From: Endomicrobiales bacterium
Lineage (GTDB): Bacteria > Elusimicrobiota > Endomicrobiia > Endomicrobiales > JAFGIL01
Direction: 5' to 3'
Length of the DNA: 64,000 nt
NCBI GenBank assembly: GCA_016929635.1
Contig: JAFGIL010000050.1
Span: forward strand, 22,067 to 86,066
Below the pieces are notes generated by a model. That model searched no databases and was not told the origin of the DNA. It worked only from the letters and a program-made list of their open reading frames with translations. Shown here piece by piece: positions 50,552 to 52,380 of this stretch. A program made the position numbers and the translations under genes. Every line of letters begins with the position of its first letter. Position 1 is the first letter of the stretch.

Positions 50552-51658
50552 ATGATTACAACCAACTTTTTTGACCAGCAATCTGATTTAACCGCGTCCA
50601 AAATATTAATTTATCAAAAATATCTTAAAAACTATTTACCGAAGGTTTTGATGCAATATGGCAAATGCTTTATTGCAGACTTTTTTTGTGGTCCTGGAAA
50701 GAATGGAGAAAATCCGGGAAGTCCATTGATACTATTAGATGAGGCAAAGAATATTTTAGAAAGCCCAGTATTACGGCAGAAATGGCCAAATCCAGAAGTA
50801 GTCGTTCTTTTTAGTGATTCAAATAAATCGCATATAGAAAATTTAACTCTTACTCTAAAACAGAGCGATTATCCAAAAGAAATAAAAATAATAGGCCCTA
50901 TTTGTGAAGGGTTTGATTCTATTTTAGAAAAATCCAAGCAAATTTATTCTAGCATAAAGGAACCTAAATTTTTCTTTCTGGATCCATTTACATATTCTGA
51001 AGTTACTATGGAAAATGTTAAGTGCTTAATCGATGTAATTGCAGCAGAGGTTTTACTTTTTCTACCAACATTTCATTCTTTTCGTTTTGTAAAATGTGCA
51101 GACGCGTCTCCAAAACTTAAAGAATTTTTAGAAGCATTTACAACAAAAGGCTGTGCAAATTATTCTGATATATTTGACTTTAATGAATCAATTAGAAGTA
51201 AGCTGCTTTCCGATCTAAACTTAAAGTATGTTAGTGCAATAGGTTTGGATGGTGGAGCAAAAAAGAATGCATTGTTTTATTTAACTAAACATATAACCGG
51301 CAAATTGCTTATGGATAGGCTGGTGTGGAAGATTGCGTATGATGGTGTTACGGTAAAAGCAAAAAAAGATATAGAGCCGACTTTATTTGATTTATCTCCT
51401 TTGTCTGATAATTTTTCTGAAAAGAAGGATTTGATAGAAAATTATGTTAAAGATAAGAAATGTGTAACTAATGTTGAAATCATTGAATTTGTAGCTATAA
51501 ATGGTTTTACTACTAAATATGCAAATGATATATTAAAAGATATGAAAAAGCAGGGTTTGATTCAAGTTGAATATAAAGATAGTAGCAAAACTCATGGTCT
51601 GTATATATCTGATGCACATTGGAATAATGAGCTTTCGATAATAAAATATAAGGAATAA
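50552..51658 (+). CDS. tcmP: three-Cys-motif partner protein TcmP-like (Rossmann methyltransferase-like N-domain + C-terminal wHTH-like domain)
   Basis: FFDQQSDLTASKILIYQKYLKNYL...FIADFFCGPGKNGENPGSPLILL matches my recollection of the TIGR04474 N-terminus. FFLDPFTY is motif IV-like. Immediately followed by a Gp37/Gp68 gene. Confidence 0.65.
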   Translation: MITTNFFDQQSDLTASKILIYQKYLKNYLPKVLMQYGKCFIADFFCGPGKNGENPGSPLILLDEAKNILESPVLRQKWPNPEVVVLFSDSNKSHIENLTLTLKQSDYPKEIKIIGPICEGFDSILEKSKQIYSSIKEPKFFFLDPFTYSEVTMENVKCLIDVIAAEVLLFLPTFHSFRFVKCADASPKLKEFLEAFTTKGCANYSDIFDFNESIRSKLLSDLNLKYVSAIGLDGGAKKNALFYLTKHITGKLLMDRLVWKIAYDGVTVKAKKDIEPTLFDLSPLSDNFSEKKDLIENYVKDKKCVTNVEIIEFVAINGFTTKYANDILKDMKKQGLIQVEYKDSSKTHGLYISDAHWNNELSIIKYKE

Positions 51659-51660
51659 TT

Positions 51661-52380
51661 ATGGGTATAAATTCTTCTATTGAATGGACAGAATCGACAT
51701 GGAATCCGGTAACCGGATGCACAAAAGTGAGTCCGGGATGTAAAAATTGTTATGCTGAACGCATGGCTATGCGTTTGCAGGCAATGGGGCAACCTAATTA
51801 TAAAAATGGGTTTAAGGTTAGCTTACATCCTCATGTGTTAGAGTATCCTCTGAAATGGCAAAAATCTCAAATGATTTTTGTGAATTCCATGAGTGATTTA
51901 TTTCATCCTGATGTTCCGGATGAATTCATTATAAAAGTGTTTAATGTAATGAATGAGGCTCAATGGCATATTTTTCAGGTGCTAACAAAAAGAGCAGAGA
52001 GGTTAGAAAAACTATCCGGGAAACTAAATTGGACTGATAATATATGGATGGGAGTGAGTGTTGAAAATGCATCTTACAGGTATAGAATCGATCATTTAAG
52101 AAAAACTGATGCTGATATAAAATTTATTTCATTTGAGCCTTTACTTGGATCTACAGAAGAGCTTAACTTAACAGGAATTGATTGGGTAATAGTAGGTGGT
52201 GAATCCGGGCCTGGGGCAAGATATATGGATAAGGATTGGGTGATAGAAATTAAAAAACAATGCATCGATTCAAATATAAAATTCTTCTTTAAACAATGGG
52301 GTGGCGTTAACAAAAAGAAAACCGGCAGAGTGCTTGAGGGCAAAACTTGGAGTCAGATGCCAGCCCTAGCATTTACATAA
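51661..52380 (+). CDS. phage Gp37/Gp68 family (DUF5131) three-Cys protein
   Basis: [32 protein letters not shown] (Cx6Cx2C), [26 protein letters not shown] and [13 protein letters not shown] are the family hallmark blocks. Confidence 0.85.
   Translation: [239 protein letters not shown]

Follow-up and report, generated by a model that had tools for sequence, protein, structure and literature searches.

The adjacent genes for TcmP (TIGR04474) and DUF5131, the phage Gp37/Gp68 family (PF07505), are listed by PADLOC as the candidate system PDC-M30, with PDC-M41 as a variant, among 145 computational candidates (Payne et al., bioRxiv 10.1101/2024.01.29.577857). The PDC candidates are defined by their embedding in BREX, DISARM or type I restriction-modification (RM) systems (bioRxiv 10.1101/2024.01.29.577857). 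A copy of the pair lies at positions 50552-52380 of a 64,000-nucleotide stretch of contig JAFGIL010000050.1 from an Endomicrobiales bacterium, referred to here as the window, and is the subject of this analysis. The window copy is a typical, intact member of a gene pair already named in curated databases (TIGR04474 with PF07505; PDC-M30/PDC-M41), and was probably acquired horizontally.

The pair is widespread. In a panel of 100 Pseudomonas aeruginosa strains, PDC-M30 was predicted in 32, and 68.8% of these were phage-resistant, which is a correlative result only (PMC10855318); strain PA14 is reported to carry two copies of the pair (PMC11878078). A TcmP gene of Sinorhizobium meliloti lies near hna (SMa2243, SMa2245) in the same putative transcriptional unit, and both SMa2243 and SMa2245 are up approximately 2-fold in a nolR+ strain (PMC12445080). 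On the DUF5131 side, one of the closest described groups comprises spore photoproduct lyase (SPL), which belongs to the radical S-adenosylmethionine (SAM) enzymes, and its SplB-like relatives. RadicalSAM.org assigns DUF5131 to Megacluster-5-2 and SPL to 5-3, beside it in the same megacluster (PMC9477430), and SplB-like radical-SAM genes have been tied by gene context to DNA repair, including SOS and repair operons (PMC3765255).

The window carries an intact and typical pair

The cassette consists of two open reading frames (ORFs), preceded by a candidate promoter:
50511-50539, + strand: sigma-70-like promoter candidate TTGCTA-17 nt-TATAAT, 10/12 in a consensus scan and a pattern match only
50552-51658, + strand: ORF A, TcmP, 368 aa with an ATG start, identified by TIGR04474, PADLOC PDC-M30A, AlphaFold2 (AF2) and Foldseek
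51647-51652, + strand: Shine-Dalgarno-like AAGGAA for ORF B, within the 3' end of ORF A, read from the sequence
51661-52380, + strand: ORF B, DUF5131 (phage Gp37/Gp68 family), 239 aa with an ATG start, identified by PF07505 and PDC-M41B/PDC-M30B

An earlier note, made from the DNA letters alone, had placed the two ORFs at these positions, 2 nt apart, and had named them TcmP and Gp37/Gp68; both the layout and the names hold. ORF A matches TIGR04474 at 90 bits (curated cutoff 53; E=2.3e-25) over profile positions 3-262 of 263, and PDC-M30A over its full length (E=3.4e-49). ORF B matches PF07505 at 339 bits (cutoff 28.9; E=2e-101) over model positions 1-243 of 243, and matches PDC-M41B (5.6e-122) and PDC-M30B (2.7e-119) over their full length. 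Chance cannot account for family matches of this strength. With both component hidden Markov models (HMMs) matching and the genes adjacent, the window pair falls within PDC-M30. All the peptides quoted in the earlier note are also present, namely the Gp37/Gp68 N-terminal peptide with its Cx6Cx2C triad, ADFFCGPGKNG (aa 42-52), VVLFSDSN (84-91), FFLDPFTY (141-148) and a C-terminal segment (307-341).

Compared with TIGR04474 and PF07505 members in general, the window pair shows no difference: both scores lie above the curated cutoffs, the partnership that gives TcmP its name is present, and the pair is a typical member. It also resembles PDC-M30/PDC-M41 in its full-length matches and adjacent genes, and its relatives are embedded on the same strand in type I or IIG RM loci; the window copy, however, lies outside any defence system. 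Neither ORF is truncated, all family-invariant residues are intact, and each ORF is 100% identical to an NCBI record of an Endomicrobiales metagenome-assembled genome that already bears the same name. As the pair is already on record both as a partnership and as a defence candidate, its novelty is smaller than the earlier note implied, and this copy adds little beyond another instance.

The junction between the ORFs reads AAG GAA TAA tt ATG, leaving the gap of 2 nt. Upstream, the end of the -10-like TATAAT lies 12 nt from the ATG of ORF A and no Shine-Dalgarno sequence is found between them (50534-50554), so the ORF A mRNA may be nearly leaderless or have a very short leader.

TcmP and DUF5131 are commonly adjacent in bacteria and viruses and co-diverge

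A genome scan with the TcmP alignment gave 37 cellular loci, 34 of them informative and three at contig ends, which span Omnitrophota, Elusimicrobiota, Patescibacteria, Bacteroidota, Gammaproteobacteria, Verrucomicrobiota, Leptospiria and Firmicutes. A DUF5131 gene lies directly downstream of TcmP on the same strand in 25 of the 37. In nine others, mostly from Patescibacteria, TcmP is followed by a radical-SAM-like protein of approximately 285 aa with the motif CSHGCRFPC (Cx3Cx3C):
L011:7153-8022: alternative partner of TcmP, approximately 285 aa, with equivalents in loci L012, L013, L016, L018, L022, L026, L029 and L036

The alternative partner is weakly related to PA0069, Rv2578c and 'radical SAM mobile pair B', which are SPL-like families, and belongs to the SPL/SplB-like group. 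It is also distantly homologous to DUF5131: the two families align from end to end over 207 columns, and their Cys motifs coincide (hhalign E=5e-5). All 34 informative loci therefore give TcmP a radical-SAM-like partner with three Cys, which is DUF5131 in 25 and the alternative in nine, and the genomic linkage, whose absence elsewhere the earlier note had named as a refutation, is very strong. At locus L035 from Candidatus Gracilibacteria, tblastn finds both genes of the pair and no long ORFs occur under genetic code 11, in keeping with the alternative code reported for Gracilibacteria.

DUF5131 forms at least 8,000 clusters at 90% identity, and a profile of the window TcmP subfamily retrieves about 3,071 protein clusters at 50% identity, mostly of about 370 aa. 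In viruses DUF5131 is far commoner than TcmP, with at least 592 viral-contig matches and 175 cultured phage records, most of them for phages of Mycobacterium, Gordonia and Burkholderia. Of the genes that directly flank DUF5131 in 72 assessable viral loci, 38 match TIGR04474, and flanking genes also match PDC-M41A and PDC-M30A; a local jackhmmer search gives 42 of 80. The narrow TcmP subfamily to which the window protein belongs is almost absent from viral contigs, where one fragment was found.

Gene order is TcmP then DUF5131 in 37 pairs, reversed in eight, and convergent with overlapping ends in 19, the convergent ones being viral. Adjacency of the two genes is thus conserved and translational coupling is not. 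Coupling as a family rule is excluded by the 19 convergent viral pairs together with the eight in reverse order; the probable co-translation proposed in the earlier note is in keeping with the 2-nt gap in the window but does not extend to the family. Besides being almost always neighbours, the two families co-diverge: the mirror-tree correlation between TcmP and DUF5131 is r=0.41, a value reached in 0 of 2000 Mantel permutations. The mean pairwise distance is 0.78 for TcmP versus 0.47 for DUF5131.

The pair travels on mobile elements and often adjoins restriction-modification genes

The pair travels on prophages, plasmids and islands, and it often lies on the same strand beside type I or IIG RM genes. 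The most frequent Pfam families among 116 flanking genes of the cellular loci are N6_Mtase (8), Eco57I (7), TaqI_C (6), HSDR_N (5), ResIII (4), SWI2_SNF2 (3) and MmeI_Mtase (3). Type I or IIG RM genes abut the pair in nine of 34 loci, on the same strand throughout, and the RM-pair junctions of those nine are shorter than 30 nt except in L020 (about 105 nt). The adjoining genes encode type I R subunits in L007, L010 and L014, type IIG enzymes in L015, L020 and L028, and PglX/IIG-like methyltransferases in L011 and L022, and L008 has hsdM/S-like neighbours in common with L014. A same-strand module of four genes, encoding a Snf2-like helicase, a type IIG restriction-methyltransferase, TcmP and DUF5131, recurs in three phyla:
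L015:71-7879: Snf2-like/IIG/TcmP/DUF5131 module, Peribacteria
L020:65-7852: the same module, Leptospiria
L028:21-7834: the same module, Halieaceae gammaproteobacterium

The conservation of this module suggests that larger systems of the DISARM or BREX type can include the pair as an integral component.

Mobile settings are illustrated by three loci. In Gordonia phage Jablanski (MT521999.1, L119 3992-5861), gp42 is DUF5131 and gp43, annotated 'methyltransferase', is TcmP (profile match E=1.6e-50); the genes converge and overlap, and within the lysogeny region they have two tyrosine integrases, a RelBE module and the immunity repressor around them. On a Hymenobacter plasmid, the pair sits between a tyrosine recombinase and an IS4 transposase. 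In the Mycobacterium abscessus prophage prophiT36-2a (OQ417963.1, L120 2305-4906), a DUF5131 gene annotated 'RNA methyltransferase' follows the gene for a DNA methyltransferase of 524 aa in a region of early genes for recombination and replication, and no TcmP is present. As this prophage copy adjoins a DNA methyltransferase without TcmP, DUF5131 may work with other methyltransferases too.

TcmP is predicted to adopt a class I methyltransferase fold

ORF A is predicted to comprise a methyltransferase-fold domain with two signature loops and a C-terminal winged helix-turn-helix (wHTH):
about aa 1-270 of ORF A, + strand: class I SAM-methyltransferase-fold domain (AF2 and Foldseek)
50675-50707 (aa 42-52), + strand: motif I ADFFCGPGKNG, D43-x-F45-x-G47-x-G49, predicted SAM-binding loop after strand 1 (E38-43)
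50969-50995, + strand: motif IV loop FFFLDPFTY, D144-P145-F146, predicted catalytic or target-binding loop after strand 4 (E139-143)
51407-51574 (aa 286-341), + strand: C-terminal wHTH (AF2 secondary structure; weak PF21100 and PF22560 matches)

The AF2 model of TcmP (predicted local distance difference test score, pLDDT, 89; predicted template modelling score, pTM, 0.87) has a seven-strand Rossmann topology in the strand order of class I methyltransferases (strands 38-43, 82-89, 111-118, 139-143, 165-171, 226-233 and 238-245), with a helical insert between strands 5 and 6. Foldseek matches the model to class I SAM methyltransferases with a probability of 1.0 in the PDB and a viral library, at template modelling (TM) scores of 0.3-0.5. 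The nearest structures are histamine N-methyltransferase, catechol-type O-methyltransferases, AzeJ, Hen1, BCDIN3D, RlmJ and viral RNA methyltransferases. No sequence relative of TcmP was found among PDB structures by single-sequence or profile search.

Motif I is invariant in a 58-sequence alignment, and among 77 relatives down to 12-20% identity D43 is conserved in 96%, G47 in 97% and G49 in 91%. The peptide VVLFSDSN at aa 84-91 places the acidic D89 at the close of strand 2, a position that is Asp or Glu in every TcmP sequence inspected. In motif IV, D144 is conserved in 100% and P145 in 94% of the 77 relatives, giving the form D-P-[F/Y/K]; the motif IV of amino-methyltransferases is (D/N/S)-P-P-(Y/F/W). 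TcmP is thus predicted to have the seven strands of a class I methyltransferase fold and, at the canonical sites, all elements of the SAM-binding signature, in agreement with the methyltransferase-like reading of ORF A in the earlier note. Assignment to a specific methyltransferase family was rejected, with no Pfam match and with Foldseek matches that are only generic to class I.

The C-terminal wHTH that the earlier note had read from the sequence is seen in the model (aa 286-341), and the Pfam GMT-like wHTH family, PF22560, exceeds its gathering cutoff in two of three TcmP relatives tested.

DUF5131 is a probable member of the radical-SAM superfamily

Two conserved loops stand out in ORF B:
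51718-51750, + strand: Cys triad C20-x6-C27-x2-C30 with Y31-A32 directly after it, predicted loop of [4Fe-4S] ligands that joins strand 1 to helix 1
52195-52209, + strand: glycine-rich G179-G180-E181-S182-G183, 100% conserved in 103 homologues, following strand E175-179

Among these 103 homologues, which are 47-70% identical across phyla, about 48 residues are at least 97% conserved, including C20, C27, C30, Y31 and G179-G183, and the three Cys residues are conserved in 100%. ORF B matches TIGR04471, 'radical SAM mobile pair protein A', over aa 15-212 (E=3.3e-24), with a score of 85.6 against an equivalog cutoff of 355. The AF2 model (pLDDT 81) is a beta/alpha partial TIM barrel with the Cys triad on the loop between strand 1 and helix 1. 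Foldseek relates the model to NifB (the best match, E=1.9e-3), MiaB, LIAS and SPL, with probabilities of 0.93-1.0, E-values of at least 1.9e-3 and TM scores of 0.37-0.50; SPL gives the highest TM (TMq 0.49-0.50). No sequence relative of DUF5131 was found among PDB structures by single-sequence or profile search. The G179-G183 segment may correspond to the radical-SAM 'GxIxGxxE' SAM-binding motif, which it resembles.

Membership of DUF5131 in the radical-SAM superfamily is well supported by sequence homology, and the protein is predicted to be a small radical-SAM-type partial barrel with its Cys triad at the usual [4Fe-4S] site of radical-SAM enzymes. The earlier note had proposed an Fe-S or metal site from the three Cys residues; the invariance of the triad in 103 homologues supports this, but the proposal was too modest given the superfamily to which DUF5131 probably belongs.

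In its predicted structure, a partial TIM barrel with a three-Cys loop after strand 1, DUF5131 resembles SPL and SplB-like enzymes (COG1533; PA0069, Rv2578c, 'radical SAM mobile pair B'). It differs from SPL in its Cys spacing (Cx6Cx2C versus Cx3Cx2C) and in being about 100 residues shorter (239 versus 340), and no significant sequence match exists between the two; ORF B matches no NCBIfam SPL model, and the likeness is at fold level only. SPL, moreover, is not known to need a methyltransferase-fold partner. The 'radical SAM mobile pair' A/B (TIGR04471/TIGR04470) is similar in another way: DUF5131 is homologous to A, the alternative partner of TcmP is weakly like B, and both are mobile two-gene modules. 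Here, however, the second gene encodes a methyltransferase-fold protein rather than a second radical-SAM enzyme, and the TIGR04471 score is far below the cutoff.

Proposed function of the pair and alternative explanations

The pair is tentatively proposed to be a mobile module of two SAM-dependent enzymes whose target in phage-host conflict is DNA, a reading that leads the alternatives considered here while falling short of being probable in its own right. In the proposed mechanism, TcmP and DUF5131 would be made together and work as a complex, in which TcmP would bind SAM and select or present the substrate, most likely a DNA base. DUF5131 would reductively cleave a second SAM to a 5'-deoxyadenosyl radical and abstract a hydrogen atom from the substrate, as SPL does on DNA. 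The outcome would be a covalent change of DNA, either a mark or a lesion, by which the carrier element or host could tell its own DNA from incoming DNA, leading to anti-phage or anti-plasmid immunity. Since the conservation of the two proteins is unequal, a variable specificity partner may be combined with a constrained catalytic one, the fast-evolving TcmP providing specificity and the highly conserved DUF5131 the chemistry. DNA as the substrate class is supported by the association of SplB-like genes with DNA repair (PMC3765255). The idea of an accessory nucleic-acid modification or anti-phage module, raised in the earlier note, matches the PDC-M30 listing and the RM neighbours found elsewhere. 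A different division of labour, with DUF5131 as a glycyl-radical-type activase acting on TcmP, is ruled out, as no glycine motif is kept across the wider TcmP family; G235 is invariant only within a narrow subfamily.

Known defence systems offer partial parallels. Viperins, whose partner is a nucleotide kinase, and Ophion resemble the pair in placing a radical-SAM enzyme in phage-host conflict, which for the pair is proposed by inference, but they belong to unrelated radical-SAM clades and have different partners. Ophion is partnered with PHP plus PRTase (bioRxiv 10.1101/2025.09.30.679545), and no homology of the window pair to viperins or Ophion was detected with PADLOC models. Type I and IIG RM systems are similar in their use of SAM, their methyltransferase-fold component and their frequent presence in the same operon; the pair differs in having neither a nuclease nor a recognised DNA methyltransferase family, and its methyltransferase-like partner is fast-evolving.

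A number of observations weigh against an action on DNA in phage-host conflict. For TcmP, the nearest structures are small-molecule and RNA methyltransferases rather than DNA methyltransferases, with TM scores of only 0.3-0.5, and Pfam methyltransferase models match none of ten diverse TcmPs, even at E<=1. The ORF A wHTH is acidic (isoelectric point 5.3), which makes DNA binding by it less assured, and about one third of the TcmP family lacks the wHTH according to the alignment gap profile; the domain may bind protein rather than DNA. For DUF5131, the Cys spacing Cx6Cx2C is not the canonical radical-SAM Cx3Cx2C (accepted members of the superfamily include variant Cys spacings), Pfam Radical_SAM (PF04055) gave no match to ORF B, and the Foldseek E-values are weak, at best 1.9e-3. 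As to context, 25 of 34 loci are not beside RM genes, and the window pair adjoins housekeeping genes and lacks defence neighbours. The pair contains no nuclease or other obvious effector, and no nuclease domain was found in ORF A, ORF B or the adjacent window genes. Classical RM conserves the methyltransferase, whereas in this pair the methyltransferase-like partner is the divergent one. Finally, full-text literature searches under the names of the families gave listings and no functional study.

A simple RM analogy, with TcmP as the protective methylase and DUF5131 as the 'restriction' arm, is rejected, as the conservation pattern is the reverse of classical RM. It is kept only in the form of a nuclease-free immunity, in which a fast-evolving methyltransferase-fold subunit would confer specificity and guide a radical-SAM enzyme of the SPL clade, whose product in DNA would be a radical-derived lesion or hypermodification; this specific form is rather unlikely. 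A nuclease-free pair could also cooperate with the type I or IIG enzymes that share its operons. If nuclease-free immunity proved to be true, the pair would be the first case in which the 'restriction' or marking role in a self/non-self system falls to a radical-SAM enzyme. More broadly, the proposed mechanism, if true, would bring a new chemical principle, radical SAM on DNA, into prokaryotic immunity or DNA modification, possibly with a new DNA-modifying enzyme. The leads are at family level: the strict linkage, the swapping by TcmP between two homologous radical-SAM partner families, the unequal conservation and the frequent RM operons. The lysogeny-region pair of Jablanski, in a cultivable Gordonia phage, is tractable for testing prophage-mediated defence.

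Alternatively, the pair may protect the DNA of its carrier mobile element from host restriction, as a counter-defence or epigenetic self-mark, with no attack on invaders. The abundance of DUF5131 in phages fits this, as does the prophiT36-2a copy that stands beside a DNA methyltransferase among early replication genes without TcmP, and two SAM-using enzymes with no nuclease would make a modification-only module. Many pairs, however, are chromosomal and embedded on the same strand in RM operons, the narrow TcmP subfamily of the window is represented in viral contigs by its single fragment, and the Jablanski pair occupies the lysogeny region, where prophage defence genes usually sit. Self-protection of the carrier is judged rather unlikely.

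Repair of DNA lesions is quite unlikely, although the fold of DUF5131 invites it. DUF5131 would here reverse a lesion such as a thymine-dimer-type adduct in the manner of SPL, with TcmP as a recognition or accessory subunit, and the pair would be a fitness gene of mobile elements. SPL tops the TM scores of the DUF5131 model (0.49-0.50), the alternative partner of TcmP is related to the SPL-like families PA0069, Rv2578c and 'mobile pair B', and SplB-like genes are linked to SOS and repair operons (PMC3765255). Yet the neighbours include no SOS or repair genes and are instead enriched in RM genes, no NCBIfam SPL model matched DUF5131, and a repair enzyme would need no rapidly diverging SAM-binding partner.

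The top structural matches of TcmP (histamine N-methyltransferase, catechol-type O-methyltransferases and AzeJ) raise the question of whether the pair makes a modified nucleotide or metabolite, in the style of the viperin chain terminators, rather than acting on polymeric DNA. A universal small substrate would be in keeping with how strongly DUF5131 is conserved (47-70% identity across phyla). Prokaryotic viperins (pVips) are radical-SAM defence enzymes that act through nucleotides as chain terminators, and radical-SAM defence via nucleotides is further exemplified by Ophion (bioRxiv 10.1101/2025.09.30.679545). The TcmP matches, however, score low in TM and show no more than the generic Rossmann fold, and on this account TcmP would not be expected to fall to 12-20% identity with its partner remaining above 47%. 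Nucleic acid is indicated by the SPL clade and by the wHTH, and no nucleotide kinase or transporter partners were seen among the neighbours, leaving a small-molecule product decidedly improbable.

A tRNA or rRNA target, for instance to counter anticodon nucleases or to tune the translation of mobile elements, is very improbable: RlmJ, Hen1, BCDIN3D and viral RNA methyltransferases are among the structural neighbours of TcmP, the tRNA enzyme MiaB is among the fold matches of DUF5131, and one phage record labels its DUF5131 'RNA methyltransferase', but the structural matches are all weak and generic, no association with tRNA genes is found in the window or related loci, and the RM embedding favours DNA. 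That the cassette in this genome is an inactive passenger, the decaying relic of a dead mobile element, is extremely unlikely, since the truncation of the neighbouring recombinase and the lack of a defence context are set against full-length ORFs, intact family-invariant residues, and promoter-like and Shine-Dalgarno sites.

Surroundings of the cassette in the window

Upstream of the cassette lie housekeeping genes, including PEPCK and a gene read as purC (SAICAR synthase). Downstream, two ORFs on the opposite strand are followed by a hairpin, and a second hairpin lies on the upstream side:
50249-50301: GC-rich hairpin that, together with 53343-53389, brackets the cassette and the recombinase remnant
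52394-52759, - strand: 121-aa ORF in convergent orientation to ORF B, with 4 nt shared with the next ORF; sole match PHROG 14161 'recombinase' (E=2.7e-8)
52756-53205, - strand: 149-aa coiled-coil ORF, C-terminal remnant of a large serine recombinase; weak PHROG 95 integrase match
53343-53389, strand not assigned: GC-rich hairpin with near-perfect 22-nt arms and T-runs on both sides, bidirectional terminator-like, at the right edge of the segment of atypical composition

The 149-aa ORF shares 41-45% identity with large serine recombinases bearing PF00239/PF07508/PF13408, over their C-terminal part. Because only the C-terminal part aligns and the catalytic N-terminus is absent, it is a remnant, as the earlier note had described it. 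The 'ParB-like' label that the same note gave to the 121-aa ORF finds no HMM support, as no Pfam or NCBIfam match was obtained at E<=0.01 and PHROG 14161 is the sole match; the ORF is probably part of the decayed recombinase locus. Neither ORF has a match among cultured phages.

The cassette has a GC content of 0.30-0.36 and the recombinase remnant one of 0.41-0.45, and the two bracketing hairpins are the only GC-rich ones of their size with a 3-nt loop in the window. A metagenome scan for an empty site with the upstream 362-aa protein found nothing, and one with PEPCK found relatives of only 52-64% identity, none syntenic across the insertion point. As no empty-site relative was found, the boundaries of the island are drawn from composition and hairpins alone.

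The GC-rich spacer upstream of the cassette (50120-50310) contains three strong hairpins, with fold z-scores of -6.1 (+ strand) and -5.9 (- strand) and no shuffled sequence as good; one hairpin (50184-50233) is followed by a T-run. The spacer has no credible Rfam match and could be a small RNA, a terminator cluster or the end of a mobile element.

Two longer inverted repeats of the window, near 38.5-39.1 kb, differ in kind from the GC-rich hairpins. At 38986-39065, in the intergenic space between ORFs 38612-38983 and 39077-40276, two short tandem repeats form an inverted pair, with TAGCGTA x4.4 opposite CTATACG x4.4, and a 52-nt imperfect inverted repeat lies just upstream of it (38552-38676). 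A c-di-AMP riboswitch (ydaO/yuaA leader, RF00379) is present at 28956-29098 on the + strand, with 48.5 bits against a gathering score of 38.

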